Below the pieces are notes generated by a model, which was given only the letters and a program-made list of their open reading frames with translations, was not told the DNA's origin and ran no database searches. 48,663 bases of DNA from a virus. This document shows, in pieces, positions 467-48,663 of the stretch; within the stretch, counting starts at the first letter, position 1; every line of letters starts with the position of its first letter. Location of the stretch: IMG/VR virus record IMGVR_UViG_3300042379_000679, one strand, 5' to 3'. Made by a program: the position numbers and the translations under genes.

Positions 467-1300
467 TCATTCCCCCAGTGTCCGATCATAGGTAAGTGGA
501 TTGACGCCCTTGATTCGACTCTTATCCTTTAAGATTAGGACCTTACCTTTATCGCGTAGAAACGTCAAGTCGTGATCATCCCCGTCAACAATACACAGTC
601 CACCGATTCCAGCGCGATAGACTCCAGAGACCCCAGACAATTCCTTATAGAGTGGTTTTGAGACTACTGCGCTACATCGGACGTTTTCAATCGTCGCTAT
701 TCTGTGGATATCCTCAAACGAATGTTCGGCCGCTACAAGCGAAAACGTCAAGTGATAGTTGATAGGTAAGACCCCAGAAACGCGCCGGTAGATTTTAGTA
801 TAGTCGTAAAATGTGATATCTGGACAATTTGCGAACAATTCGGGGTGTCTGATTTCATAGGCGATATCCGAAAAAGCGTTAAGTCTAACTGCGCCGGTCC
901 GGCCGGTCTTATCACACAGGCTCTGGAAATTGGTTAACTCTCTGGACAATTGCGCAATAAATTCAGACCGGAAACGAGAGTAGTAAAGCGTTCGATAGTA
1001 CTTACCTATGATTGAATTATCAAAACGATTCCTGCCGGCCGATATTCCGATACAATGTGTTTTACAGTGATTGTGCCTGGGACAGACATTAACTCCAGAA
1101 TGATCGGCCGGTAGAAGCGCAACATATGCGCTTCGATATTGTGGATAAAGTTTGTACGACTTTGCAAGTTTAGTGTTTTGAGTCTCTGCCGTACATAAAA
1201 TGGAATTCCTTTGAAAGTGCATGATCAGATCATGATCAGAGACCTCAGGTAAGGTTATTGCGCCGCCCGTATAGATTGATTGTGCCGATACTGTGGACAT
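467..1300 (-). CDS. GP88-like phage protein (Cys-cluster protein), function unknown
   Basis: 277-aa ORF. NTKLAKS...LLPADHSGVNVCPRHNHCKTHC (CP-x5-C-x3-C), VRLNAFSD and the C-terminal GDDHDLTFLRDKGKV resemble the GP88 family as I recall it. AGGA lies 9 nt upstream of the ATG. Confidence 0.75.
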   Translation of the reverse strand: MSTVSAQSIYTGGAITLPEVSDHDLIMHFQRNSILCTAETQNTKLAKSYKLYPQYRSAYVALLPADHSGVNVCPRHNHCKTHCIGISAGRNRFDNSIIGKYYRTLYYSRFRSEFIAQLSRELTNFQSLCDKTGRTGAVRLNAFSDIAYEIRHPELFANCPDITFYDYTKIYRRVSGVLPINYHLTFSLVAAEHSFEDIHRIATIENVRCSAVVSKPLYKELSGVSGVYRAGIGGLCIVDGDDHDLTFLRDKGKVLILKDKSRIKGVNPLTYDRTLGE

Positions 1301-1356
1301 TAGATCGATTCCTTATCTGTTGACTAATTCAGGGGAAACATTCCCCCGCCGCAAGT

Positions 1357-1385
1357 AGTATCGATCCGAATATCTGTATTTTCAA
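1357..1385 (-). promoter_or_regulatory. Candidate sigma70-type promoter for the 467..1300 gene
   Basis: The minus strand reads TTGAAA-17 nt-GATACT. Confidence 0.3.
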
Positions 1386-1516
1386 GCCATTTTTACGAGA
1401 TCGGACTGGAACGTAAGTCTCTGGCCTGGCTGGCCTTTGGGGCGATTTCTGGGGGCTGGCTGGCCCCCTGGAGGGGGCTGGATGGGCGAGCGTGTGCATG
1501 GGCGTGTTTGGCTTAG

Positions 1517-1620
1517 TGTCACTGTGTCACTGTATCCATGAGTGTCAGTGTATCACTGTGTCACTGTGTGGCCTCCTGCCTGATTATCAGGTGGTCGTAG
1601 TTCCGTAAGTGTCACTGTGC
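1517..1620 (+). repeat. Iteron cluster A: 6 copies of CA(C/G)TGT(A/G)T(C/G)
   Basis: CACTGTGTC 1520, CACTGTATC 1528, CAGTGTATC 1546, CACTGTGTC 1554, CACTGTGTG 1562, CACTGTGC 1613. All are in the same orientation, in an ORF-free region. Confidence 0.8.
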
Positions 1621-1642
1621 GAGTATGTTACGATTTTGGATC

Positions 1643-1668
1643 TGGCAGAATGGCAGAGAAGTGGCAGA
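1643..1668 (+). repeat. Three closely spaced TGGCAGA motifs
   Basis: TGGCAGA at 1643, 1651 and 1662. Related GTGGCAG copies occur near 1774 and 1877. Confidence 0.6.
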
Positions 1669-2011
1669 AAATGTCAACGATCTGGGCGAATGTTGAACAA
1701 ATTGCAAGGGAGCCAGAAGTCAACAAGATTGTGAAATAAAGAACGAAGTCCCGAGCCGGAGGGATTGGAGGTCAGTGGCAGGGTGACGGGCGTGAGCCTG
1801 GGGCGAGGGTGCTGGGCTGGCTCGTTTAGGCTTAATTAAGCGTGATTAGGTCCCAAAGCGAGCTTTTTTAAGAAAAGTGGCAGTGTGTGCAATCACAAAC
1901 CCTCCTCCCAATCTCCTCCCCTGAACCAATCATCACTAAGTTGTGTAAGATGGTGATATATGGTTTGCTGGTTAATAACTTACAACCTATCCCCGCGCCG
2001 TGTATGATGTT

Positions 2012-2049
2012 GCGTAAATAACAAAGAAGCCCAGCGGGTTGCTGGGCTT
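2012..2049 (-). terminator. Rho-independent terminator downstream of the 2079..2570 gene
   Basis: 9-bp stem AAGCCCAGC/GCTGGGCTT (2027-2049) with a 5-nt loop. On the minus strand it is followed by CTTTGTTATTT. Confidence 0.7.
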
Positions 2050-2078
2050 GAAATCGTATCTGGATTGTGGCGAGTGGA

Positions 2079-2570
2079 TCAGATCAGATAGAGTGGATTG
2101 CGTGCGAATTCAGGCCCATCGGCCCATCCTGTAAGTTTTTTTACCTGCTCAAGTTCATCCTCATGGATCATAACGCTCTCGGTTGTCAGAGTGTCGCCAA
2201 AGCGTTCAGCTATCTCGGGATGATCTTCGCGTAATTCAGCCCAAAATTCGTCTGCGGAATATTCAAAATCGACCGACACTCGAAACCAAGTCTCACCGTC
2301 ATGGTCAATGTAGATCAATTTCCAATCTTGAGTGGTATCATCCAGCTTCAGGAAAATACCTTCCCATTCGCCCCAACTGCTATCACTGCCACATTCAAAG
2401 GCTCCACGCCCGTTAGGCCAGCGGCACATCGTACCAGTCCAAGATTGACCAAATTCATTTTCGCCTCTAACGTCCCAGATCTCGCAACCAATCTCCAGTT
2501 CGGCGAGTTGATCGTGGGCGAAACTCATGCTTTTGGCTGTTTCGAGGTCTGCTGCTGTTTCGATTTTCAT
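2079..2570 (-). CDS. Hypothetical protein (163 aa)
   Basis: The 2079..2618 ORF is trimmed to the ATG at 2570, which is preceded by GGAAGGA. The product is Trp/acidic-rich with no recognisable domain. Confidence 0.7.
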   Translation of the reverse strand: MKIETAADLETAKSMSFAHDQLAELEIGCEIWDVRGENEFGQSWTGTMCRWPNGRGAFECGSDSSWGEWEGIFLKLDDTTQDWKLIYIDHDGETWFRVSVDFEYSADEFWAELREDHPEIAERFGDTLTTESVMIHEDELEQVKKLTGWADGPEFARNPLYLI

Positions 2571-2676
2571 CTGTCTCGATCCTTCCGTTGGAAACATGTT
2601 TACCATTTGAGATACCAACCAATCTGATCCAATATAACCACTGACCTGGCAACAAGCCAGATCATTTAATCCGCTT

Positions 2677-2868
2677 TCATCTGGTCAATTCCTGAAAAGT
2701 GTAAGCTGCAAGATCAGACGCAAATCCGGTGGAATCACCACACAGGCCCAACAGGCCTCCAGCCACGGTGTCATCCGGTTCGCAGTCCACAACGCAGCAT
2801 CGATTCGCATCCCAATAGTGATGCCCTGCGATAGGACCATAATTCCTGAATCGTACGTACAAGATCAT
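2677..2868 (-). CDS. Hypothetical small Cys-containing protein (63 aa)
   Basis: AAGGGG lies 7 nt upstream of the ATG, directly after the stop of the 2880..3089 gene, in operon context. Confidence 0.5.
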   Translation of the reverse strand: MILYVRFRNYGPIAGHHYWDANRCCVVDCEPDDTVAGGLLGLCGDSTGFASDLAAYTFQELTR

Positions 2869-2879
2869 GATTCTGCCCC

Positions 2880-3089
2880 TTACTTAGAGTCGCAATAAGT
2901 TTGGAAACCTTGGCCTGTTTTGAGATACCTGGTCGCAGCCACAGACGTTTCCAGACTCCACCCAAGCTCATCATGCAAATAATCGCAGATCGCAACTGCG
3001 GATCGTCTCTTGGCAAGATCTCTTGCCTGAGTCAACTGACCGTTGATCAAGCTCTCAGCCATAAATTCAAACGCTTCTGATCGTTTCAT
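2880..3089 (-). CDS. Hypothetical protein (69 aa)
   Basis: The 2880..3146 ORF is trimmed to the ATG at 3089 (AAGGGA upstream). The predicted TSS of the 3149..3177 promoter lies downstream of the 3146 ATG. Confidence 0.55.
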   Translation of the reverse strand: MKRSEAFEFMAESLINGQLTQARDLAKRRSAVAICDYLHDELGWSLETSVAATRYLKTGQGFQTYCDSK

Positions 3090-3148
3090 GATTCGTCGTC
3101 CCTTACTTGGTTTTGAGATTTCATCGAGAACATTTCCCCGACACACAA

Positions 3149-3177
3149 AATATATCGACCGGATGAGCCAGAGTCAA
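3149..3177 (-). promoter_or_regulatory. Sigma70-type promoter of the 3089->2079 mini-operon
   Basis: The minus strand reads TTGACT-17 nt-TATATT. A second TTGACA box lies just upstream at 3195-3200. Confidence 0.55.
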
Positions 3178-3313
3178 AAAGATTTCTCAAAAAATGTCAA
3201 CGGCCTTTGATCTAACTTAATGGCTTATTCCATAGGGTTTGACGCTGATTTGGGCCTGAACTTCGGCCTGAATATGGGTGCGCGTGTACATACGCCTATA
3301 GGCGTGCGTGAGG

Positions 3314-3487
3314 CAGTGTATCCCCGTAGGATATCATATTTAGCACTGTATCTATAAGTATCACTGTATGACACTGTATCTGGGTAGATCACTGTATCTA
3401 TATTTGGCACTGTATCCGAATAAGGCACTGTATAGGTGTAGAGTGGTGTAGGACAGTGTATCAGGAGTCAGTTTACACCAGTGTATC
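3314..3487 (+). repeat. Iteron cluster B: 9 direct copies of CA(C/G)TGTAT(C/G/A)
   Basis: Copies start at 3314, 3344, 3362, 3372, 3390, 3408, 3426, 3454 and 3479. Four of the eight successive spacings are exactly 18 bp. Confidence 0.85.
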
Positions 3488-3489
3488 TA

Positions 3490-4240
3490 TAAGGCTGAAT
3501 ATACTACTGAGTGGGATACTGAACAAAGTTATACTTTGCATTTTACGTCTGTAATACTTCAGAGACAGAAGACGACCTTTTCCCCTACACTACACCTGAC
3601 TCACATCTTGTTTCCTCTAGGCCTTGTATGAGAATCCTCATATCACCTATCAGAAACCTGTGAATCCTGATTCAACTCAACCTTAGACGTCATTTCCCAC
3701 TTAAGGGAACATTCCATCTGGCTGAAAGAATCTGGTAGTGGGCGAATACTAGGTCTGGTCAGCTTACCGATTAGACTCGTTTTAGTGTAGGGACCAGGTT
3801 GTTAGGTATCAACAGTGCCTGGATTCGATAGTGAGTCTACCCGTCAAGCCGAATGGCGATCCTCATTTACCACTGTCCAGTGCTGCACTCAGCGAGCGTT
3901 CGTCAAACGCCTTCCCCCTGGACACTCATCTATCACTCACTGACCCTTGCCGGAGGATCTGACCAACTTCCCAGTACTGGGTATGTGTGGCAAGGAAACC
4001 TGTACTACGATATTGATCGCGTTTTTAGGCTGTCAGCGTTTTCTTGTCAAAGAGTTGTGAGATATACGACGGATGCGATCCAGTTCGCGTATAGGCGGGT
4101 GATTGACTCACCACTTATCTTGCCTCCGTCACCCAGTTTAACCGTCGGTTCATGCTGGGTAGTAGATTCAGCTCTCGCTGATGAGGGGGTTATCGTATTC
4201 AGCGCAAGGCTTGGTCCGCTCTTTTTCAACCCTGATCTCA
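3490..4240 (-). ncRNA. Candidate non-coding transcript or leader, unclassified
   Basis: A consensus promoter at 4247-4275 fires into about 750 nt. On that strand there is no ORF with a ribosome-binding site, only ATG-ORFs of 23 aa or fewer once the one overlapping the -10 box is excluded. Confidence 0.25.
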
Positions 4241-4246
4241 CCATCA

Positions 4247-4275
4247 ATTGTACATCACCCTCATATCCATGTCAA
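4247..4275 (-). promoter_or_regulatory. Strong sigma70-type promoter pointing left into the ORF-free region
   Basis: The minus strand reads GTTGACA-17 nt-TACAAT. Confidence 0.55.
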
Positions 4276-4417
4276 CGACCTACCAAACGCATAGCTTGAC
4301 AGACTTACAAAAACGTATAAACACCATATATCCCACCCTCCCATTAAACTATAAGCCCTTACATTATAACGGATTGGCGAGTTTTTAAAAAATATGTACA
4401 TAAAATTTAGTCGCGTA

Positions 4418-4446
4418 TTGACATTCATATGTCGATAGACTAACAT
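4418..4446 (+). promoter_or_regulatory. Promoter of the rightward early operon (4493-7874)
   Basis: TTGACA-17 nt-TAACAT. The spacer contains TATGTCGATA, which is also found at 11481. Confidence 0.5.
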
Positions 4447-4492
4447 TCCTCCAAGGCTGGAACACATAAGAAACGTCACACAGGGAGGATCG

Positions 4493-4894
4493 ATGGCGAA
4501 CTCGCTCAAGTACTCAACAGAATTTAATCCAGGTCAACTGGCAGCTATGAAGGGCATCCTGAGAAAGAATGGATGGGAGACAGAGGATACGATTGTCAAC
4601 GGCATCGAACTCTATGCATTTGGGTATGGATATGCCATCGCTGACTGGAAAAAGATCTGGTCCGAAAAACCTTTCCCTGAAGACTTCCCTTATATACCGC
4701 TTCTCATGCTACCTCACCATAAACTGCTGGGAAAGATCCAGCACGACATTAACCATAATCCAGACCGCAAACGTCACATGGAGAAGATGCACGAAAAGGC
4801 CTACTTGACTTACGTTGAGTCTTACCAAACAGATTGGGAGTCTCAAGACTTGCTTTATAGATACAAAAAACTGATGAAAGAGGCTCAAGTATGA
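4493..4894 (+). CDS. Hypothetical protein (133 aa)
   Basis: GGGAGGA lies 4 nt upstream of the ATG. It is the first gene of a tightly packed operon. Confidence 0.8.
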   Translation: MANSLKYSTEFNPGQLAAMKGILRKNGWETEDTIVNGIELYAFGYGYAIADWKKIWSEKPFPEDFPYIPLLMLPHHKLLGKIQHDINHNPDRKRHMEKMHEKAYLTYVESYQTDWESQDLLYRYKKLMKEAQV

Positions 4895-7601: not shown

Positions 7602-7874
7602 ATGTCATACGAAGATGAGATCGAAGATAACGAAGAGTCGGAAAACGGATTTAATGTCCCTCGCTTCGATGAGGCTGAAACAGAAGAGTACATGACGATC
7701 TTGATCGACTCTGTTTTTACGCCCGAAAGCCTGAGGAAACTGGGCTTTTTAGCCTTGGAAGACCTGAGGGAGCAGTACAAAAAGGCGGGTGAATGGCCCA
7801 ACTGTGAGCTAAGACAGGGAGAAGACTTCGGGAAAAGATTGCTCAATCAAATCGCCTGGAAAATGAACATCTGA
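7602..7874 (+). CDS. Hypothetical strongly acidic protein (90 aa)
   Basis: AAGGA upstream. The N-terminus is MSYEDEIEDNEESENG. It is the last gene before the terminator. Confidence 0.65.
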   Translation: MSYEDEIEDNEESENGFNVPRFDEAETEEYMTILIDSVFTPESLRKLGFLALEDLREQYKKAGEWPNCELRQGEDFGKRLLNQIAWKMNI

Positions 7875-7944
7875 CTTGTCAGATCCTAATTTTGCGTGTA
7901 CAATATTTGCTCAGTCCTGGTCACGGACGATCAGAATCCATCAG

Positions 7945-7979
7945 CCCCTTGAGCTTGTTGCTTGAGGGGTCTTTTTTTT
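7945..7979 (+). terminator. Rho-independent terminator of the rightward early operon
   Basis: 10-bp stem CCCCTTGAGC/GCTTGAGGGG (two G-U pairs) with loop TTGTT, followed by T8. Confidence 0.8.
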
Positions 7980-8337
7980 AATACTGCACATCGATTTCAC
8001 GCACAGAATACGGGTAACAGCCTCTCGGAGGTAATCTCCTGACAAAGTTACCCACATTGACCTGTTCGTCGTCCGTAGGTGGCTTTACAGGCTCGCTATT
8101 GGCAATCCCTGCCATCTTGTTTCTACGCTTGATCTCAGCAGCAAAAGCTCTTGCCCCAGGCATCCCTAGCGACTTTTTAATTTTTGCTTTCCTGCACTCC
8201 TTGCAAACAACAGCCGAGTTTCCCGCCAAAGCCTCCTTGTCATTATTGACAATAGAGACAGTGACGGTTAAGTCGTTGATCCCACAGTAGATGCAGGAGC
8301 GTTTATCACGCCCCACAATGGTTATCCAGTTTGTCAC
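7978..8337 (-). CDS. Zinc-finger protein, degenerate HNH-like (119 aa, GTG start)
   Basis: CIYCG...(28 aa)...CKECRKAK resembles the CxxC...CxxC frame of HNH nucleases but lacks the D-H catalytic pair. The GTG start overlaps the stop of the frame-B ORF 8334..9032. Confidence 0.55.
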   Translation of the reverse strand: MTNWITIVGRDKRSCIYCGINDLTVTVSIVNNDKEALAGNSAVVCKECRKAKIKKSLGMPGARAFAAEIKRRNKMAGIANSEPVKPPTDDEQVNVGNFVRRLPPRGCYPYSVREIDVQY

Positions 8338-8466
8338 GATTCGATCCTTCTTCCAAGCATCACGCCGTCGATTTCAACGTATTCAAATTCATCCTGAGTT
8401 GGGCCAGGCATCAGGCAATCCTCGGCATAGTCAACGCCGCATGGGCAATTCCCATCCTCATCGCAA

Positions 8467-9300
8467 TCAACTGAGAAGATCACGGGCAACCATGGGTTCT
8501 CTGGTAACGGTGTTCCGAAGTGATTGTTCAAGTATTTTCCATGCTGTTGCTGCCACAACCGGAACCTGACCGTTCCCAAGGGCTTTAAGCCTTCCCACCC
8601 TATCGGCCACCCCATGATCCAACCGACCCACAGAGGGTTCAGCTGACCACCAGTCTTGGATTCCTCTCTCTCTCTCTCTCTCTCTCTCGCAAAGACCTGT
8701 CTGGGCAGTTGGTCCAGCCGATTCCGTACAGTCCCGTCCTTGTTGATCGATGTGGTCTTCTGACCCGCAGTATCCTTCCAGTCCCGGCTGTTGGGAGTGA
8801 CCCACTTCTCTTTCGCACAAGATCCAGATGCGTTTTCTGAGGTGGTTAGCTCCACAGTCGGCAGCAGATAACACTGTCCACGCCGCATCAAACCCGAGGT
8901 CGGCCATTTCTCCGAGAACTCTGTCGAGTCCTCTTGAGGTAAGGGCTGGGACGTTTTCCAGGAAAACGAATCGGGGTTCCACTTCGCGAATGACTCGAAC
9001 GGCTTCAAAGAAGAGCGATGATTTTTCGCCATGTATACCTTCCCCCTTGCCAGCCAGACTGATGTCCGTGCAAGGAAATCCGGCAGCGATCACATCCACG
9101 TAGTTTCGCCAGCCTGTTGCGTCAAAGGTCTTTATGTCATCGTGGATATGCATCTCGGGGAGGAACCCATCGGCAATCCTCTGAGCCAGCACCTTGCGGC
9201 AATATGGATCAATCTCCACAGCACAAACAGGCGTATGCCCCAGTAGTAATCCACCAAGGATTCCTCCACCAGCCCCAGCAAATAGATGCATTTCCCGCAT
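8467..9300 (-). CDS. DNA (cytosine-5) methyltransferase
   Basis: Motifs: FAGAGGG (I), GFPCTDIS (IV), ENV (VI), RKRIWIL (VIII), then WWSAEPSVGRL...RLKALGNGQVP (X). GGAG lies 6 nt upstream of the ATG at 9300. Confidence 0.85.
   Translation of the reverse strand: MREMHLFAGAGGGILGGLLLGHTPVCAVEIDPYCRKVLAQRIADGFLPEMHIHDDIKTFDATGWRNYVDVIAAGFPCTDISLAGKGEGIHGEKSSLFFEAVRVIREVEPRFVFLENVPALTSRGLDRVLGEMADLGFDAAWTVLSAADCGANHLRKRIWILCEREVGHSQQPGLEGYCGSEDHIDQQGRDCTESAGPTAQTGLCERERERERGIQDWWSAEPSVGRLDHGVADRVGRLKALGNGQVPVVAATAWKILEQSLRNTVTREPMVARDLLS
8664..8688. repeat. (CT)12/(GA)12 dinucleotide microsatellite inside the methyltransferase gene
   Basis: 25 nt of perfect alternating CT. It encodes ERERERER in the methyltransferase frame. 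Confidence 0.97.
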
Positions 9301-9354: not shown

Positions 9355-10635
9355 TCAAACAGCAATCACTCTTCTCATATTACCGCATAAATGCGTGTAA
9401 CCTAACGAGATACTATCCACGCAGTCGTCATGTACATCCGCAGGAGTCCCAGTAAAGGAATCGATCTCCTCGAAGCATGCATCCGTCCAGCCACCAAGAA
9501 CATAGAAAATGTTTCCAGCTGATGCCGCGCGGCTAAAAGGGACTGCCCTTGTCAATTTGTTTGACCCAGGTGAACTCCAGGCAACACGCCTTCCGGCCAG
9601 ATTCTTCAGTTGATGCTGCAACAACCGCTTCCCAGCCGAGCCAGGCTCAACCTCAATTACAATCGTTGTTCCAGGTCCATCCTCATCCGATGTTTGCGAG
9701 ATTTTTGGATCAACGTCCTCAGCCGAATATTGCTGGCGAATCTGGTCAAAGATGATCACCTTCTCTGTCCCTGGAATCAGGCCCATCAGAGTCCCAACCG
9801 TGTAATCCGACCTTCGGCCCACAGTCGCAGCACAGTCCCAACTTCGGCACATAATGAGCCTCTCGGGTATCGGTCCTTGCCATGGTCTGATCCACGATGA
9901 CTTCATCAAAGCCCCGTCCGTATCGCAAAACAGCCCTTCAACTTCCTGTTTGTAGAAAGCCCCATCATAAGCAGCCTTAAGGCTTTGCACGAAGAAGTCA
10001 GGGTTGAACGTGTTGGAATATGATGGAGCATGGATCATCTCAGCAATGCCAGCCTGGATGGCTCGGTATTCCCACCTGTTTTTCCCTCGAGGGGTAAAAG
10101 TTGCCCATAACTTACCGGGATTCTTTCTTAAGCGGCCCAGCAGAACTTTATAGGTATCTTCATCGCAAAAGCTGGCCTCATCCATGTACACAGCCCCAGC
10201 ATTAGTCCCCCGCAGCCTGTCCGGCTTATCCGCAGATCTCCACAAAATTGTCCGGTCACCTTTGACCTTCGTTTCCATATCCGTTTTGTTGTGGCTCATG
10301 ATCAGGCCAGACTGACCGTAAAGCTCTTCAAACATACGGAACGTGGAGTCTTTGAGGATCGTAAAAGTCGGTGCAACGACAATCGTGAGCGTCCCTTTAG
10401 GCTGGTTCATAATCTCGATCACGCCAGCACGAGTCTTCCCAGCACCAACCCCACCCACAAAAAATTTCTGCTTCGATGGAGAGACCCAGAACTGCAACTG
10501 CTGTGGAGTAAAGGTACTTACATTATGTATCTGACGACGACCCGTCTTCTCCTTCCGAAGCTGCGAGAACAGGGAGTTCTGATTCATTCGTTCCAGCCGG
10601 AAGTCGTCCTGATCCATCGACATATTTTTTGACAT
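9355..10635 (-). CDS. terL: Terminase large subunit
   Basis: Walker A GGVGAGKT and Walker B VYMDEA. The C-terminal nuclease-type region reads SWDCAAT...DYTV...HDDCVDS. The ORF is trimmed to the ATG at 10635 (GGGGAA upstream). Confidence 0.9.
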   Translation of the reverse strand: MSKNMSMDQDDFRLERMNQNSLFSQLRKEKTGRRQIHNVSTFTPQQLQFWVSPSKQKFFVGGVGAGKTRAGVIEIMNQPKGTLTIVVAPTFTILKDSTFRMFEELYGQSGLIMSHNKTDMETKVKGDRTILWRSADKPDRLRGTNAGAVYMDEASFCDEDTYKVLLGRLRKNPGKLWATFTPRGKNRWEYRAIQAGIAEMIHAPSYSNTFNPDFFVQSLKAAYDGAFYKQEVEGLFCDTDGALMKSSWIRPWQGPIPERLIMCRSWDCAATVGRRSDYTVGTLMGLIPGTEKVIIFDQIRQQYSAEDVDPKISQTSDEDGPGTTIVIEVEPGSAGKRLLQHQLKNLAGRRVAWSSPGSNKLTRAVPFSRAASAGNIFYVLGGWTDACFEEIDSFTGTPADVHDDCVDSISLGYTHLCGNMRRVIAV

Positions 10636-11290
10636 TTTCGTTCCCCTGGTACTGCCTCGAGAGTTCTGAACTAATTTCTGCCAGCGTTTTCCCTGCGATT
10701 CGCTGCTCAACCTGGTCGTTCGACATCTGCCTGTCCCAGAACTGCAACTTGACCTCAGGTTTGGCGAATTCCATACCCCTGGTACGCTCAAGCCACCATG
10801 CCGCAGGAATCCAGTTCCCCTTCTTGGCTGCGTCCAGGATCACGTTTACACAAAGGTCTCGAGTCGCGTTCTGGGCATTATCAAAATCTATTTTTCGCTG
10901 TGGGTTCTTCTTCATGTACAGCCAGAGCGTTTTGCGATGCACGCCGATAGCTTTAGCGATTGCACTGATCTCATAACCCATCTTTGCCGACTCAATAATC
11001 TTGGCCCAGTGATTACGTATCTTCTTCTGAGGCTGATTGTTAGCCAATCCCTTGCGAGTCAGGAACGCCGGCTTCGTCGTCATCAATTCCAGATTGGCTT
11101 CAACGTCATCACTAAAGTCGTAACGAGTATCAAGATTAGGAACCTTAACAGACTTCTTGGGCTTAACTTTAGGAGTAGGCTCGACTTCGGTTTCGGTTTC
11201 GATCTCGGCTTTATGAACAGTTGTTTTCGGTGGTCGTCCACGCTTTTTAGGCGTTTCGCCGGATTCAGATGGGGCTGATTTCTTTGCCAT
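10523..11290 (-). CDS. terS: Terminase small subunit (HTH-containing)
   Basis: It lies directly upstream of terL. HTH segment ISAIAKAIGVHRKTLWLYMK, an AAWWLER motif and a basic N-terminus. The ORF is trimmed to the MAKKS start at 11290. Confidence 0.65.
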   Translation of the reverse strand: MAKKSAPSESGETPKKRGRPPKTTVHKAEIETETEVEPTPKVKPKKSVKVPNLDTRYDFSDDVEANLELMTTKPAFLTRKGLANNQPQKKIRNHWAKIIESAKMGYEISAIAKAIGVHRKTLWLYMKKNPQRKIDFDNAQNATRDLCVNVILDAAKKGNWIPAAWWLERTRGMEFAKPEVKLQFWDRQMSNDQVEQRIAGKTLAEISSELSRQYQGNENVKKYVDGSGRLPAGTNESELPVLAASEGEDGSSSDT

Positions 11291-11462
11291 AATTGCTTGT
11301 CGCTTCCTCGATGGAGTCGGGTTCCAGCGTCTGTTCAATAATGTCCACAACGATTTCCGGCACAGCACCCATTTCCGCTCCAGCAGCGATATAGAGTGCC
11401 ATTTCGACAGGGTCAATCACCCTATCAGGCTCGACAACGAGAACAGATAAGCATTCATTCAT
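11265..11462 (-). CDS. Hypothetical acidic protein (65 aa), possibly on a leaderless mRNA
   Basis: First ORF after the divergent promoter. The ATG lies 6 nt after the -10 box, with no SD. Confidence 0.4.
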   Translation of the reverse strand: MNECLSVLVVEPDRVIDPVEMALYIAAGAEMGAVPEIVVDIIEQTLEPDSIEEATSNYGKEISPI

Positions 11463-11497: not shown

Positions 11498-11520
11498 TCT
11501 AAATCGTGTTACTTTTTGTG

Positions 11521-11549
11521 TTGACATATTCTGTGGAATTGTGTACATT
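11521..11549 (+). promoter_or_regulatory. Promoter of the tRNA and exonuclease unit
   Basis: GTTGACA-17 nt-TACATT. Confidence 0.55.
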
Positions 11550-11575
11550 TATGCCATCGGACGTTACGTCTGGTT

Positions 11576-11647
11576 CCACGGGTCGCCACATGGGTAGGCA
11601 AAAGGCTCAAGGGCTTTCGGATGCAGGTTCAAATCCTGTCCCGTGGA
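11576..11647 (+). tRNA. tRNA with an atypical anticodon arm. Anticodon CAA if a 7-nt loop is assumed; identity uncertain.
   Basis: - Acceptor stem: perfect 7 bp, CCACGGG/CCCGTGG, with U8.
- D arm: GCC/GGC, with GG in the loop.
- T arm: GCAGG-TTCAAAT-CCTGT.
- Variable region: 5 nt.
- Anticodon stem: AAAG[G]/[G]CTTT, with a G-G at 31:39 and loop CTCAAGG. Confidence 0.6.
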
Positions 11648-11676
11648 TTGGCTGCCAGGTCGCATACTTCTTCGGT

Positions 11677-12621
11677 ATGATCCTCAAGACACGCTCGGCC
11701 TGGTTCAGCCTTCAAATCCTAAAGATCCTCCCTACCCATGGAAGGGGAATCTCTAAGGACTGCCACTTGCAACGTCATCACTACCTCGGTGCTTCAGAAA
11801 TTGCCTGTATTTTAGGCATCTCGCCATTTGGCGACAAATTTAAAGTCTGGTATGGAAAAACCCATCCAAGAGAATTCGATTCAACCCCGACAGGCAAGAT
11901 GCAACTGGGGCTTGATACGGAAGACTTCGTTCTCACCCAGTTTGAAAAGCGGTTTAATACAACCGTCACTCGCAAACAAGAGCGGATGCGTCACTGGCTG
12001 GAAGACTGGGCTGGTTGCACTCTTGACGGTATGGCCGTTGTAAACGGCGAGAAAGCCGTGATTGAAGCCAAGACAATTGGCACATCCATTTACAACACGC
12101 CTCCCGATTACTACGTCATCCAGGTGCTTTGGCAGCAGTGGGTTGCTGGCGTTGATCAAGGTTATCTGGTCGTCTGGTCCACCAAAGATCTTGCGTTTGA
12201 ATCCTATCCGATCCATATTGCAGATCACCAGGCCAAATTGACTGAAGCTGTTCAGGCCGGAAAAGAATTCTGGATGAACCACGTTGTAACCGAAATCCCC
12301 CCGGAACGAAATACAACTGAACGTCAAGACAAAGAATTACCGGAAGATCTTCTCGAAGAATATTGCCATGTCCAGGACCAGATCAAAGATCTCACCGTCA
12401 GGAAAGATATTCTTCGCCAGCAAATCGTCGAAGCCATGGGTTGTCCTAGCGAATTGAAAAGCCAGTCTTCAAAATACCAGCTTGACATCACAACGACACA
12501 GACCAAACGATTGAATTCCAAAAAACTGGAGAGTGACAATCCAGAACTCGTGCAAAATTATTTTGAAACCTCGAGCAGTCAAAGGGTAGTTGCCAAAAGA
12601 TTATCTGCTCGAATTTCCTGA
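11677..12621 (+). CDS. YqaJ/lambda-exonuclease-like PD-(D/E)XK recombination nuclease
   Basis: LGASEIACILGISPFGDKFKVW (YqaJ N-terminal motif) and CTLDGMAV...AVIEAKT (D...ExK). The start is uncertain: ATG 11677, or the TTG near 11769 with AAGGA upstream. The track ORF start at 11506 runs through the tRNA. Confidence 0.8.
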   Translation: MILKTRSAWFSLQILKILPTHGRGISKDCHLQRHHYLGASEIACILGISPFGDKFKVWYGKTHPREFDSTPTGKMQLGLDTEDFVLTQFEKRFNTTVTRKQERMRHWLEDWAGCTLDGMAVVNGEKAVIEAKTIGTSIYNTPPDYYVIQVLWQQWVAGVDQGYLVVWSTKDLAFESYPIHIADHQAKLTEAVQAGKEFWMNHVVTEIPPERNTTERQDKELPEDLLEEYCHVQDQIKDLTVRKDILRQQIVEAMGCPSELKSQSSKYQLDITTTQTKRLNSKKLESDNPELVQNYFETSSSQRVVAKRLSARIS

Positions 12622-13020
12622 TTTGATTTTGAAGGCCTTCTTAAACAAGTCCATCGCTTTAGGCTGACCTTTGACAGGGTTGGCCTTTTCTGTTTCTGTG
12701 GGCATATCCATGGCATGCGTATTGATCACGCAGTTTTCCCAAGGTCGTAGCTGCACGGTTGGAGCAGTAGCCGCTGGCTGAACAATCGCTTTTGAACCTG
12801 GAACAAGTTTACGAATTTCAGTCTCTGTTGCTGTTCCGTACCTCTCAGTCATCGCCGAAACAATCACATCGTTGATCGTTGTTCTGCCTTCCATGGAAAT
12901 CAACTTTAATTTAGCCCATAGAGCTTCCGGCATAATAATAGAGGCCCGCCGTGAGGCAGACCTCCTTCCGGTTGGATGATTATTCTTCTTGTACTTCTTG
13001 TCTGCTGGCTTCTGAGTCAT
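12601..13020 (-). CDS. Ribbon-helix-helix (CopG/Arc-like) DNA-binding protein
   Basis: RRASIIMPEALWAKLKLISMEGRTTINDVIVSAMTERY fits a strand-helix-helix pattern. AAGGGA lies upstream of the ATG at 13020. Confidence 0.6.
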   Translation of the reverse strand: MTQKPADKKYKKNNHPTGRRSASRRASIIMPEALWAKLKLISMEGRTTINDVIVSAMTERYGTATETEIRKLVPGSKAIVQPAATAPTVQLRPWENCVINTHAMDMPTETEKANPVKGQPKAMDLFKKAFKIKSGNSSR

Positions 13021-13076
13021 GTATCTATCCCTTAGAGAAGAGAATCCATTCTCACAAACCAGTCCATTGAAGTCAA

Positions 13077-13547
13077 TCACGCAGCCAGTACTGGGTTACG
13101 GATTAGAGCGATCATGTCAAGTGCGGCTTCTGTGAGGCTCACAGGTTCATACTCTAAGTCATCGCTCAAACTACCGTCCATGTGCATCAATCGCCCATCG
13201 GAAGTCGGTATCAGCCAGTTACCATCACCGTAAGCGACTTCATCAGGAGATCTTAAGTAAGCCTTTATCCAAGCACAAGGCAGAGAGTCATCGACAAAGT
13301 TGCCCACCAGAGCCAGAGCGAAATCCTTGGGACAAGGTTCACCCTCTCTCCAGTTCGACCAGGTCGAAACAACACGAGAATCATTAACAATTTCAAGGCC
13401 CATACCGAAGCTAAGAGTAGACATACGAACACTTTCTATCCTACCGAAGGTGCAAATAGGTATCGCCAGACCAAACAAACACCCATCGTGAGTGAAAGAG
13501 CTTGATCTGCGCGGATGTATACTACTGAACATCGAGACACTAGTCAA
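13077..13547 (-). CDS. Hypothetical protein (up to 156 aa; start uncertain)
   Basis: An ORF downstream of int on the same strand with no recognisable motif. An alternative start is at 13424. Confidence 0.5.
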   Translation of the reverse strand: MTSVSMFSSIHPRRSSSFTHDGCLFGLAIPICTFGRIESVRMSTLSFGMGLEIVNDSRVVSTWSNWREGEPCPKDFALALVGNFVDDSLPCAWIKAYLRSPDEVAYGDGNWLIPTSDGRLMHMDGSLSDDLEYEPVSLTEAALDMIALIRNPVLAA

Positions 13548-13670: not shown

Positions 13671-14702
13671 TCAAGCTGGCTTAACCAGCCCCTTCGCTTT
13701 CATCGCCGACTCAGCCATGTACTCCTTGTCCTGGTGAACCTGTGAGTAGACCTTCATGATCATGGTTACGTCCCTGTGTCCCATCAGCTTTGCCAATGTC
13801 ACAGGATCAACCCCGTTTTGCAAAGCCTGTGTGCAGTATCCTTTACGGAATGCTCCAAGGTGAATCTTGACTCCAAACTTATTGCGAAGACGAATCATCG
13901 CATCCTTTACGGAAGTCTTATTCCACGGGTTGCCCTGTGTGTTGACCATAATTGGCCCCTCAGAGCGTCTCTTGGCATAATCCGACAGAATCTCCATGGC
14001 TCGATCCGATGCGATGTAGACCGTTCTGGCGTACTTCTTGCCCTTGGCCTCTGCCGCAGGGAACACGATCATTCGCTCATCCTTACGGAAGTGCCGAGCC
14101 TCGATCAGGACCAGTTCCTGAGGTCGCATACCTGTATCCCAGGCAAGAATCATAAGATCCTTAAGCGGAGACTCAGGGATGTTGGACTCGATAAACGACC
14201 ACTGCTCAGGCGTTATGTAATCTTCTCGGGCTTCAGGAGAACACTTTTCAAGATGCTCCACTGGGTCAGTCTCGATCAGCCTGTTTTTTTTGGCCCAGCT
14301 AAATAGCCTTTTGATAGCCCGTGCGAAGTTGTAACGGCTGTTGGCCTTCCATGTCCGCTGGCTGGAAATCATAAGAGAAATCTGGCTCAAGCTGACATTC
14401 TCTGCCACCGTATCTCCTTTCACGTACTGGGCTAACTTATCAAAATACATACCATACCACTGCCACGTTCGCTCGGAACGAGACGTTTTCATCTCCTCAA
14501 TGAAGGCATCACAGATGGTTTTGACCGTTGGCTTGTTCGATTCCTCAGGAACCCCACCAGCCATGATCAAGTGCCATTTGGCCCAAGATTCTGCCTTGCT
14601 TTCTGCCAACTTTATCTGCCGCTTACCAACTTGTAAGTACCACGCTCTACGTGATTTACGGTAGAACGGTTCATTTCGCGATTCCATAGCTTGTACTCGC
14701 AT
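13671..14702 (-). CDS. int: Tyrosine-recombinase phage integrase
   Basis: Box I DTGMRPQEL, HLGAFRKGYCT (H-x-x-R) and LMGHRDVTMIMKVYSQV (H...Y). It lies adjacent to the tRNA-derived attP. Confidence 0.9.
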   Translation of the reverse strand: MRVQAMESRNEPFYRKSRRAWYLQVGKRQIKLAESKAESWAKWHLIMAGGVPEESNKPTVKTICDAFIEEMKTSRSERTWQWYGMYFDKLAQYVKGDTVAENVSLSQISLMISSQRTWKANSRYNFARAIKRLFSWAKKNRLIETDPVEHLEKCSPEAREDYITPEQWSFIESNIPESPLKDLMILAWDTGMRPQELVLIEARHFRKDERMIVFPAAEAKGKKYARTVYIASDRAMEILSDYAKRRSEGPIMVNTQGNPWNKTSVKDAMIRLRNKFGVKIHLGAFRKGYCTQALQNGVDPVTLAKLMGHRDVTMIMKVYSQVHQDKEYMAESAMKAKGLVKPA

Positions 14703-14776: not shown

Positions 14777-14819
14777 TGGAGACGATCGGGATCGAACCGA
14801 CAACCCCCTGCTTGCAAAG
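14777..14819 (-). other. attP core: 3' portion of a tRNA-Ala(UGC) gene, from the anticodon loop to the discriminator
   Basis: The minus strand reads TTTGCAA-GCAGG-GGGTT-GTCGG-TTCGATC-CCGAT-CGTCTCC-A. U70 and A73 match Ala identity. No matching 5' half (GGGGACG...) is found upstream. Confidence 0.75.
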
Positions 14820-14919
14820 CTGAGGGCAAACTGTTGTACTGTATGGGTTTAGGTCATTTTCATCCCGCCGAACAGCTCGACGGGACAAGAGTGAATTTAG
14901 ACTTCCGACCACCTGACTG

Positions 14920-16049: not shown

Positions 16050-16268
16050 ATGCTAGTACTTTCAAGAAACCCTGGCGAATCGATTCAATTGTTTGGACCT
16101 GAGGGGAGGTTGCTTGCAACGATAACGTATATCACTCTGTCAAGCACGAGGTCGATCAGGGTTGGCTTTGAGGCTGAACCAGACATTACGATAGTTCGCT
16201 CCGAGATTTCGGGTAGACCTAATAATGGGAAAAAACCCGCTCACTCTCGGATGGATAAAACTACTTAA
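16050..16268 (+). CDS. csrA: CsrA/RsmA-family RNA-binding protein homolog
   Basis: MLVLSRNPGESIQL...IRVGFEAEPDITIVRSEI aligns by eye with E. coli CsrA MLILTRRVGETLMI...VRIGVNAPKEVSVHREEI, with L4, R6 and the R44-equivalent kept. AGGAGGA lies upstream. Confidence 0.7.
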   Translation: MLVLSRNPGESIQLFGPEGRLLATITYITLSSTRSIRVGFEAEPDITIVRSEISGRPNNGKKPAHSRMDKTT

Positions 16269-17079
16269 GGATCATGGGATAAACACTGTCCCGATGTCTT
16301 CGGAACAGAAAATGCCATTGATTCAAACATCACAATATTGGAGCGGTTTTCCCTTGTCGGCCATGAATGATTTGCAACCCAAGAATATCGCTGCTTTGCC
16401 AGGGCTGGCTTCACGACTTCTCGTACTGGACCTGGATGGTCCACAGGATATGATGCGTGCATTCTTCGAAACTCGACCAGCTTTACCGCGAACTTGGCAA
16501 GTTAGTACTGGCGGGGGTGGTTTGCACCTCTGGTTCAGGCTACCTCACTGGTACAAGCGACCCATCCCCAACGTGCGACTGTGGCAAGGTACTGGAAAAC
16601 ACGAAGAAGTCCTCGTCCTTGGTGACAGAAGGCTTGCTTCCTGCCCTCCTACTCAGTACGGCTCTGGGAAAATGTACAAATGGACGGGTTCAGTCAACCC
16701 GCTCACGGGCAAATGTGGCATCGCGCCGCAGTGGTTGCTCAGTGAAATCGAAGACAAAACGACTCAGAAGAAGCAACCTTTTACAGGATCATTGACATTT
16801 TCTGCGTCTCGTTCTCTTGCCCCATCCGATGAGATCCCTGAACGACTCTCTATCTTGCAGAGTTATGGCTTGAGGCTGGCTGGAAAGCCCAATCAGGCTG
16901 GATGGATTCCATGCTATCGACCAGGTGACCCGCATGATAGTCGGCCCAGTGCCTCTGTGCGAGTTGATGGATCGGTAGTCTGGACTAGTGGTGGCTCTAT
17001 GGATTTCTGGGGTGCATTGGTTGCACTCCATGCTTTTGACTCGATTGAAGCCGCAGTGACGGCAATAAGAGGGATTTGA
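16225..17079 (+). CDS. Bifunctional primase-polymerase (Prim-Pol, archaeo-eukaryotic primase (AEP) superfamily)
   Basis: LLVLDLDGP (DxD), STGGGGLHLWF and LASCPPTQYGSGKMYKW match the Prim-Pol N-terminal domain pattern. Confidence 0.75.
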   Translation: MGKNPLTLGWIKLLKDHGINTVPMSSEQKMPLIQTSQYWSGFPLSAMNDLQPKNIAALPGLASRLLVLDLDGPQDMMRAFFETRPALPRTWQVSTGGGGLHLWFRLPHWYKRPIPNVRLWQGTGKHEEVLVLGDRRLASCPPTQYGSGKMYKWTGSVNPLTGKCGIAPQWLLSEIEDKTTQKKQPFTGSLTFSASRSLAPSDEIPERLSILQSYGLRLAGKPNQAGWIPCYRPGDPHDSRPSASVRVDGSVVWTSGGSMDFWGALVALHAFDSIEAAVTAIRGI

Positions 17080-17805: not shown

Positions 17806-18222
17806 ATGATGGATGCAGATCAGAAAATCAGAAATGCTTTTTCGGACGCTGAAAAGGCTGTACCAGATGCAGAATTGAAATACACGATTATCCGAGAGGC
17901 TTTTGAGTCTCACAAAGATGATGATGAACGACAGTACGAGTACATTTACGAGCGATTGGCGAAGCCTAAAAGGTCTGCTCTTGCCCGTGATATGAACGCA
18001 TGGTTATATCTACATAAGATAGCACATGAACTTCTGGCTCAGTCTCAGATCTGCTTACTTAATGCTGAAGGTGAAACACCTGGCCCACTACTTGCCCGAT
18101 TGCAACGCCCAGTGATTAGGTCGCCCAGGAACTGGAGGATTTGCGGCATCTGTGATGGGACTGGTGAAGACCCAACGATTGCTCATTGCAATGGATGCTG
18201 GGGACACGGGTATTATGTCTGA
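17806..18222 (+). CDS. Hypothetical protein with a DnaJ-type CxxCxGxG zinc motif pair
   Basis: The C-terminus reads CGICDGTGEDPTIAHCNGCWGHG. AGGAGG lies 5 nt upstream. Confidence 0.65.
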   Translation: MMDADQKIRNAFSDAEKAVPDAELKYTIIREAFESHKDDDERQYEYIYERLAKPKRSALARDMNAWLYLHKIAHELLAQSQICLLNAEGETPGPLLARLQRPVIRSPRNWRICGICDGTGEDPTIAHCNGCWGHGYYV

Positions 18223-48097: not shown

Positions 48098-48291
48098 ATC
48101 ATAACATAAGCAGGTGTGCATAACAAGATGGGAGTGAGGGGGAGGCTTTTTCTGTTTTTTATTTTTTTCTCTTTTAAGAATTCTCGACAAAGCGCATGGC
48201 CGACACGCCTGGGGCCACGGCTCCGAAAAAATCGCGAAATTGTGTCACATAAACTAGGTGTCCATGTCATGAAAACACCCTGGAAACAAGT

Positions 48292-48663
48292 AAAGCACCG
48301 GCCTGATCGGCCGGTGTGAAGTGGTTGAAGCTCAGAAAGCAAAGCACCGGCCTGATCGGCCGGTGTGAAGTGGTTGAAGCTCAGAAAGTAAAGCACCGGC
48401 CTGATCGGCCGGTGTGAAGTGGTTGAAGCTCAGAAAGTAAAGCACCGGCCTGATCGGCCGGTGTGAAGTGGTTGAAGCTCAGAAAGCAAAGCACCGGCCT
48501 GATCGGCCGGTGTGAAGTGGTTGAAGCTCAGAAAGCAAAGCACCGGCCTGATCGGCCGGTGTGAAGTGGTTGAAGCTCAGAAAGCAAAGCACCGGCCTGA
48601 TCGGCCGGTGTGAAGTGGTTGAAGCTCAGAAAGTAAAGCACCGGCCTGATCGGCCGGTGTGAA
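48292..48663. repeat. Tandem array of the same 49-bp unit, right part (7.6 units)
   Basis: Same unit and period. The polymorphic base at 48340,48389,48438,48487,48536,48585,48634 = C,T,T,C,C,C,T. The window ends inside a unit. Confidence 0.97.
48537..48663. other. 127-bp terminal overlap identical to 1..127, indicating circular closure of the assembly
   Basis: Register and polymorphic bases match (48585=C vs 49=C; 48634=T vs 98=T), and both segments end in ...GGTGTGAA. No other register reconciles the two C/T patterns. Confidence 0.85.

Follow-up and report, generated by a model that had tools for sequence, protein, structure and literature searches.

Co-oriented direct-repeat arrays, predicted to bind protein, belong to a reiterated promoter module in a family of freshwater temperate phages

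Phage regulatory and origin regions are known to contain arrays of short direct repeats. In satellite phage P4, ori and crr are reportedly two separated clusters of one short repeat (8-9 bp). The P4 α protein fuses primase, helicase and iteron-binding domains, and the P4 iterons are short. In the P1 and F plasmids, arrays bracket the Rep initiator (incC-repA-incA and incB-repE-incC, respectively); the plasmid iterons are 17-22 bp long, with ~22-bp phasing. Small phage proteins can bind such arrays too. Cox of P2 and Apl of 186 each bind 5-7 co-oriented direct repeats at two loci and regulate promoters. The ω protein of pSM19035 binds 7-10 heptads at three promoter regions (PMC9499535). In c2-type phages (Ceduovirus), a structure-dependent non-coding transcript, from a non-coding region between divergent gene blocks, is implicated in initiation of replication (PMC7150918). 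Here we describe two arrays of a short direct repeat in IMG/VR virus record IMGVR_UViG_3300042379_000679. This 48,663 bp stretch, which we call the window, is the complete assembly of a temperate tailed phage genome and is circularly closed or terminally redundant, at ~48.3 kb. The arrays, a main array (cluster 2) and a minor array (cluster 1), flank a leftward operon of three genes, the mini-operon (Table 1).

An exact search for CASTGTAT, where S is C or G, places the main-array copies at positions 3314, 3344, 3362, 3372, 3390, 3408, 3426, 3454 and 3479, all on the plus strand. The spacings are 30, 18, 10, 18, 18, 18, 28 and 25 bp, and degenerate GGTGTAG copies are found within the array at ~3436-3452. 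Hence, the nine same-strand CA(C/G)TGTAT copies in 174 bp given in a preliminary description of this DNA are confirmed, as is its statement that four of the eight spacings are exactly 18 bp. The six further copies that it reported near 1517-1620 are present as the shorter core CASTGT (1520-1618, plus strand). These cores, in the minor array, start at 1520, 1528, 1546, 1554, 1562 and 1613 and are separated by 8, 18, 8, 8 and 51 bp; Tandem Repeats Finder detects an 8-bp tandem repeat at 1516-1569. Also borne out is the overall arrangement of two co-oriented clusters with a shared core, ~1.8 kb apart, on either side of a leftward three-gene operon.

The clustering is far from random. CASTGTAT matches the 48,663 bp 13 times, counting both strands. 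Dinucleotide shuffles had a mean of 2.0 matches (standard deviation 1.7) and none of 100 reached 13. A rough Poisson estimate for at least nine copies in 174 bp of one strand is below 1e-25. The six-base CASTGT is not enriched genome-wide (50 found, 50 expected). Thus, the signal is local clustering of the longer motif. The main array has a GC content of 33-35%, compared with ~49% for the window. In 0.57 Mb of genome loci, mostly planctomycete, that were retrieved through a tRNA-Ala match described below, the motif is not clustered.

Relatives were retrieved by scans with the repeat pattern, GP88 and a non-coding anchor. They are freshwater contigs with 70-97% DNA identity (loci L031/L172/L175, L032, L050/L173/L275, L063, L070, L076, L078, L087/L088, L169, L171, L177, L178 and L281/L282). 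The anchor, of 18-20 nucleotides (nt), matched only this same family, apart from chance matches inside unrelated genes (L167, L168, L170 and L176). The same core, orientation and 18/10/8-bp phasing occur in at least 12 related contigs, and all relatives covering the region have a minor array of 3-6 copies together with a major array of 7-13. When spacings are pooled over the relatives, 18 bp is counted 67 times and 10 bp and 8 bp are counted 18 times each; larger values are sums of these. The consensus of the core reads CA(C/G)TGT(A/g)T(C/g), with C at the third position 74 times and G 54 times. A weaker RTRT sub-repeat is present in flanks and spacers, and each 18-bp unit behaves as one strong and one weak half (8+10 bp). 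Internal units vary in number between relatives, and both ends of the array are constant. Even the most diverged lineage, in which proteins p112 and p159 are 44% and 67% identical to those of the window, retains this core. Since the core is the same in every relative, a test for co-variation of iteron and binder was impossible.

Seven other assemblies of the window genome were available for comparison. Five are 100% identical over the stretches covered, two are 99.55-99.99% identical and the array is identical in all. Being identical in independent metagenome assemblies, the array is not an assembly artefact. Separately, in L031 (~7750-7900) and L178 (~1280-1430), the main array contains an insertion of ~150 bp whose long terminal inverted repeats recall a miniature transposable element.

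Alignment of the DNA downstream of the arrays, that is, leftward, identifies cluster 1, cluster 2 and an extra cluster of L031 as paralogous copies of one ~400-bp module. Its parts are, in leftward order, the array, a short conserved block that in cluster 2 is a 14-bp palindrome, a GC-rich spacer (repeats of GGCCTGAA or GGCTGG), a σ70-type promoter, a leader, a ribosome-binding site and a leftward gene. L031, L172 and L175 carry three modules, the extra one accompanied by an extra gene, and each copy in L031 heads a different gene set. The palindrome ACGCCTATAGGCGT is a unique exact match in the window and is invariant in all eight aligned module copies. The conserved leader is also read as GTCGGGGAAAT... 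in the paralogue alignment. A consensus promoter for the mini-operon had been claimed previously and is indeed present. Both of its hexamers are kept in eight relatives and its 17-nt spacer varies freely. The hexamers of the second leftward promoter are similarly conserved, with a variable spacer. Because hexamers are kept while spacers drift, we regard the promoters at 3177-3149 and 1385-1357 as real. The repeat nearest to the −35 element is 137 bp away for cluster 2 and 135 bp away for cluster 1, and the arrays are all co-oriented relative to the transcription that they precede. In the relatives, cassette boundaries fall between leader and terminator. Hence, the module is constant and the genes are variable.

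Several smaller features adjoin these modules. A 45-codon open reading frame (ORF) at 3220-3357 on the plus strand is not a conserved gene, since its ATG is missing from L078 and L050 and is displaced by one base in L178. We also rejected the arrays and spacer as coding sequence more generally, given that the 10- and 8-bp spacings shift the frame, that stops occur and that the ATG at 3220 is not conserved. Likewise rejected were transposon ends (the clusters are direct instead of inverted and there is no transposase) and attP arm sites (attP adjoins the integrase, away from the arrays). The sequence TGTACAT occurs 13 times in the window (4.1 expected). Its sites include 3285, beside the palindrome, 4249, in the −10 element of a leftward promoter, and 4394/4395, just upstream of the divergent rightward promoter. 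These copies may be operator half-sites. Beside cluster 1, a highly conserved block at 1640-1870 on the plus strand has three TGGCAGA repeats and a 29-codon ORF (MAEKWQKMSTIWANVEQIAREPEVNKIVK), and is followed by a terminator-like GCGAGC-TTTTTT sequence at ~1859-1870. The ORF, 1650-1739, was rejected as a gene. It is broken by 1-nt deletions in three of ten relatives and so conservation is at the nucleotide level. The block may specify a small RNA or act as a DNA element.

The genes between the arrays behave quite differently from the arrays themselves. None of p69, p63 and p164 matches a Pfam or PHROG family. Protein p69 is an ORFan, for which a set of 5.8 billion proteins contains only five clusters, all near-identical. 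It is restricted to the window, L063 and L078, and other relatives have different genes in its place. The distribution of p63 is patchy. Protein p164, which by its sequence is rich in acidic residues, is 41-96% identical among relatives, and a sequence search of the PDB found no similar solved structure. In L178, the equivalent of window positions 2057-3137 is replaced by a different small gene, and both arrays are still present. The mini-operon is a cargo cassette of the moron type, in which variable, non-essential genes have a promoter and terminator to themselves. The preliminary description proposed that one of these small proteins binds the iterons. Since the genes are variable, with p69 in three genomes only and p63 patchy, and since the arrays persist in L178 where the operon is missing, a shared binder is unlikely to be encoded there. 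That description also suggested a comparison with related phages; the arrays prove conserved and co-oriented in them, whereas the bracketed operon is variable or absent.

On the other side of the main array lies a candidate structured RNA of ~700 nt (3530-4240). The strong promoter predicted to drive it, 4275-4247, is conserved in most aligned relatives and diverged in L050. The region itself is 78-91% conserved and has no conserved ORF; orf148 is frame-broken in relatives. Hairpin-sized insertions and deletions distinguish the relatives, in that 3612-3733 is missing in two, ~4000-4040 is missing in three and 4142-4235 is replaced. Compared with shuffled sequences, the fold z-scores are −3.2 for the plus strand and −4.5 for the minus strand. 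The alifold consensus energy is −144.7 kcal/mol for the minus strand versus −111.8 kcal/mol for the plus strand, and the minus strand has more G-U cells. In an alignment of nine fairly similar sequences, compensatory changes affect eight pairs, a number attained in 1 of 500 shuffles; slid controls have 0-1. Rfam searches of 3530-4240 at E<=10 gave no match, those of 1300-4600 gave only chance-level matches and, at gathering thresholds, tRNA alone was found. Hence, with modest support, 3530-4240 is a candidate for a large structured non-coding RNA. It is a more novel item than the arrays and, if confirmed, would be a new RNA class.

We tentatively favour, at rather less than even confidence, the view that the arrays are protein-binding sites that control or insulate the leftward promoters for cargo and virion genes. 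We infer that the repeats are bound, as double-stranded DNA, by a sequence-specific protein that probably coats each array cooperatively and whose gene is elsewhere in the phage or possibly in the host. The modules head leftward units consisting of interchangeable cargo cassettes and then, after the last module, GP88, the portal gene and other virion genes. A bound array could control or insulate the promoters by looping to the palindrome or promoter. Alternatively, it might act in silencing or anti-silencing, or as a block to read-through from the strong promoter at 4275. The near-equal distances of the arrays from the −35 elements, and the paralogy of the modules, count in favour of promoter control. 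The variable S is the centre of a 5-bp palindrome, CASTG, and C and G are both common there, which fits recognition of duplex DNA better than of RNA. Copy number is invariant in the 99.55-100% identical assemblies and ranges from 7 to 13 in diverged relatives, the core remaining fixed. The ω protein is a precedent (PMC9499535).

Several observations weigh against promoter control. The arrays are at least 135 bp upstream of the −35 elements and do not overlap the promoters. With 10 and 9 of 12 consensus matches, these promoters look strong by themselves and thus should not need an activator. As many as 9-13 sites are usual in origins or centromeres rather than in ordinary operators. No such array accompanies the terminase genes, and so the arrays are not a general control of late genes. 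Finally, no binder was identified among the proteins searched, p159 being a single, weak lead. The AlphaFold model of p159 has two helices at the position of its ribbon-helix-helix-like motif; the model is poor (predicted local distance difference test score 55), too poor for a fold search. The protein has no Pfam match, and a profile search of the PDB found nothing. Protein p159 is a possible candidate for a direct-repeat binder. Sequence searches of the PDB with p252, p226 and p85 found nothing, and p85 has nothing informative in Pfam.

An origin of replication, in a modified form, is the other reading that we take seriously, although it is doubtful. The main array would bind an initiator or open the duplex, the ~700-nt transcript from 4275 would activate or prime replication and the other arrays would be auxiliary or serve in handcuffing. 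These are the sole iteron-like arrays in the genome, they are relatively AT-rich and they sit in ~1.4 kb (3090-4490) without a conserved ORF, between divergently transcribed blocks. A conserved near-consensus promoter aims the structured non-coding transcript at the array. The c2-type lactococcal phage origin lies in a comparable non-coding region, and its PE1-T transcript is implicated in initiation (PMC7150918). As stated in the preliminary description, the phage has a Prim-Pol and a helicase and no recognisable initiator. Conversely, 13 kb lie between the arrays and the replication genes, and no Rep or α-like initiator is near the arrays. Neither a Rep-like initiator nor a fused primase-helicase like P4 α was found. 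Pfam identifies the Prim-Pol and the helicase as separate proteins, and the neighbouring ORFs had no informative matches. The genes that the arrays bracket are dispensable, every array comes with a promoter module and genomes have either two modules or three. Nor are the 18/10/8-bp spacings helically phased like classical ~22-bp iterons, and in L031 and L178 the palindromic ~150-bp element interrupts the array. The most AT-rich spot, 4340-4440 (25% GC), is the divergent promoter region and not an iteron-flanked unit. The cumulative GC skew peaks at 44.6 kb and is lowest at 15.3-15.5 kb, by the replication module, although this is weak evidence, partly confounded because skew mostly follows gene orientation; the minimum marks the boundary between integrase and replication module. 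That module has a 27-nt inverted repeat (15267/15416) and no iteron-like array. The origin and promoter roles are not mutually exclusive, as the ω protein of pSM19035 illustrates (PMC9499535). Autoregulated Rep proteins are a further example.

The remaining explanations seem less probable. If the repeats were recombination scaffolds, or had spread by slippage, they would be conserved linkers for cassette swaps with no dedicated binder. Cassette content does differ on either side of the conserved modules, one lineage has an extra module and copy number changes by whole 18-bp and 10-bp units. However, the 8-9-bp core is invariant while spacers vary and proteins diverge to 44-67% identity, which indicates that the core itself is under selection. 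This reading also leaves unexplained why all copies point one way and why the end units are fixed, and we consider scaffolds decidedly unlikely. Packaging offers another role, with the arrays as pac or cos sites where DNA is wrapped around an oligomeric small terminase. Direct-repeat arrays occur in several such sites, including λ cosB and P1 pac, and the arrays described here are just upstream of the portal and head genes. Yet 4.5-8 kb, including an operon of opposite orientation, separate the arrays from the genes for the small terminase, large terminase and HNH protein. Moreover, a genome has two or three arrays, every one of them with its promoter, making this role very unlikely. An RNA-level action, in which the repeats are a 3' extension of the structured RNA from 4275 and are bound in the manner of TRAP or as a protein sponge, is just as hard to credit. 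While no minus-strand terminator is predicted between 4240 and the array, and a CsrA homologue is encoded (16050-16268), cluster 1 is behind a terminator and the C/G exchange, central in a DNA palindrome, would be a non-conservative change in RNA. GGA is missing from the motif. Moreover, region 3530-4240 was rejected as a CsrA sponge, GGA not being enriched in the RNA (13 found, 15.8 expected). We give least credence, and hardly any, to centromere-like partition sites (parC/parS) bound by a ribbon-helix-helix protein and doubling as operators. Partition arrays of R1 and pB171 do resemble these repeats, several short direct-repeat arrays near promoters recall pSM19035, and p159 has a possible ribbon-helix-helix motif. 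Nevertheless, the phage integrates, the arrays do not overlap promoters and a six-frame scan for Walker-A motifs matched, among recognised genes, only the large terminase and the helicase, with no ParA-type ATPase. No ParM or TubZ was noted among the ORFs scanned; these proteins lack a Walker-A motif and were not specifically screened for, and ORFs of the virion region were not scanned.

It is conceivable, if unlikely, that the array and the ~700-nt RNA form a single undescribed functional unit of Planctomycetota temperate phages, either an RNA-primed, protein-gated origin or a read-through switch. As a switch, the protein-coated array would decide whether transcription from 4275 continues into the cargo and virion genes.

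The coordinates of the features are collected in Table 1. A 49-bp tandem repeat of ~7.6 copies is found at both window ends, at 1-374 and again at 48288-48663. Each unit contains a GC-rich hairpin, CACCGGCC-TGAT-CGGCCGGTG. This array is situated between GP88 and the portal gene, a gap of only ~440 bp in other assemblies. That the phage integrates is indicated by its tyrosine integrase and by its attP, which has the sequence of a tRNA-Ala 3' end. Exact matches to the attP core in genome collections are almost all in Planctomycetota genomes or metagenome-assembled genomes (Pirellulaceae, Planctomycetaceae, Kuenenia and Isosphaeraceae), and the host is therefore probably a planctomycete. Among INPHARED annotated phages, megablast and blastn found none that resembles this one, and a scan of genome contigs with the large terminase located no prophage in any sequenced genome. 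Several independent freshwater metagenome samples (JGI, ENA and Logan; loci L265-L273) yielded the same phage genome, in stretches of 0.8-8.8 kb that are 99.6-100% identical to it. Hence, this is an abundant natural phage.

Table 1. Position and nature of features in the window
Feature	Coordinates	Strand	Remarks
Main array (cluster 2)	3314..3487	+	Nine co-oriented CA(C/G)TGTAT(C) copies
Minor array (cluster 1)	1516..1620	+	Six co-oriented CA(C/G)TGT(A/G)T cores
14-bp perfect palindrome ACGCCTATAGGCGT	3292..3305		Adjoins promoter-proximal edge of main array
GC-rich spacer	3206..3291		GGCCTGAA-type repeats; TGTACAT at 3285; from module alignments
Mini-operon promoter, TTGACT-17-TATATT	3149..3177	−	10/12 consensus matches
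Leader GTGTCGGGGAAATGTTC... and ribosome-binding region	3090..3148	−	Repeat family D4; from module alignments
Mini-operon	2079..3089	−	p69 (2880-3089), p63 (2677-2868), p164 (2079-2573)
Intrinsic-terminator-like hairpin	2027..2049	−	Ends mini-operon; conserved in relatives
Second leftward promoter, TTGAAA-17-GATACT	1357..1385	−	9/12 matches; heads GP88, then virion genes
Strong promoter, TTGACA-17-TACAAT	4247..4275	−	11/12 matches; points into non-coding region and array
Candidate structured RNA (~700 nt)	3530..4240	− favoured	Transcription predicted towards main array
Divergent rightward promoter, TTGACA-17-TAACAT	4418..4446	+	For small-gene operon from 4493; conserved
GP88	467-1300	−	
HNH protein	7978-8337	−	
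Methyltransferase-like protein	8334-9032	−	
Large terminase (TerL)	9355-10791	−	
Small terminase (TerS)	10523-11416	−	
YqaJ exonuclease	within ORF 11506-12621	+	
p159	12601-13080	−	Ribbon-helix-helix-like (strand-helix-helix-like) motif RRASIIMPEALWAKLKLISMEGRTTINDVIVSAMTERYG; homologues only in this phage family
Tyrosine integrase	13671-14702	−	
attP core	14777-14820		Adjoins integrase; equals 3' 44 nt of tRNA-Ala(UGC)
CsrA homologue	16050-16268	+	Pfam PF02599
Prim-Pol	16225-17079		284 amino acids, stand-alone (Pfam)
SF2 helicase (ResIII/DEAD)	18152-20620	+	Intein and HNH domain inside
ThyX			Recognised gene
RuvC-like resolvase			Recognised gene
Virion genes	~48.2 kb down to ~23.2 kb	−	

Some further observations concern these genes. 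L246 contains a truncated copy of the same tRNA-Ala and is possibly the junction of another integrated element. The CsrA homologue scores 34.2 bits with PF02599 (cut-off 27). Its gene is upstream of, and overlaps, that for Prim-Pol and is also found in L281 and L283. The helicase intein is polymorphic within the phage family, the L281 allele being intein-free (534 amino acids). Between the large terminase and HNH genes, the methyltransferase cassette varies (8334-9032 in the window, 4287-4835 in L274 and 14536-15675 in L281). It is a C5-type PF00145 enzyme of differing lengths, or MT-A70 (N6-type), marking another swap site. The 5' part of the long ORF 11506-12621 includes a plus-strand tRNA-Leu(CAA) gene (11575-11648). 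The start of the YqaJ gene is probably downstream of this tRNA; calls in relatives are of 283-293 amino acids.

The array and promoter module looks like a standard platform for the swapping of cargo genes in this phage family. Knowing the protein that reads the arrays would explain the timing or insulation of cargo and virion gene expression, or where replication starts, in this phage. Phages of Planctomycetota are a nearly unstudied group. Of the described systems, Cox and Apl differ in having ~10.5-bp phasing and attP as one of their loci; the attP of this phage, at ~14.8 kb, is without such repeats. The ori/crr arrangement of P4, with which the locus was compared at the outset, resembles it in having two separated clusters of one short repeat, with a shared core, in a phage with its own primase and helicase functions. 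The two differ in other respects. The Prim-Pol and SF2 helicase are separate proteins, with no fusion like that of P4 α, and are encoded 13 kb away. The clusters are all co-oriented and promoter-tied, and do not form a fixed pair, since L031, L172 and L175 have three modules. As in iteron plasmids, a small operon has an array of the same repeat on either side. Unlike in P1 and F, that operon is variable cargo, which L178 lacks, and 9-bp units recur at 18/10/8 bp. The c2-type phages are similar in geometry, with a promoter inside a non-coding region between divergent gene blocks; in this phage family the promoter is conserved. In the present phage, support for RNA structure is modest and the transcript is predicted from sequence. 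Moreover, no iteron array defines the c2 origin, and the c2 region drives plasmid replication. With pSM19035, whose ω protein is a ribbon-helix-helix ParB, the likeness is in several short non-palindromic repeat arrays (7-10 copies) at several promoter regions, read by one small cooperative protein (PMC9499535). There, the 7-bp units are contiguous, extend over the promoters and are accompanied by a gene for a ParA ATPase; here, 9-bp cores are 18/10/8 bp apart and at least 135 bp upstream, and no ParA was found in the scan. The points that distinguish the phage arrays from these systems are the reiterated array-promoter module, the 18/10/8-bp phasing and the setting in a planctomycete phage family.

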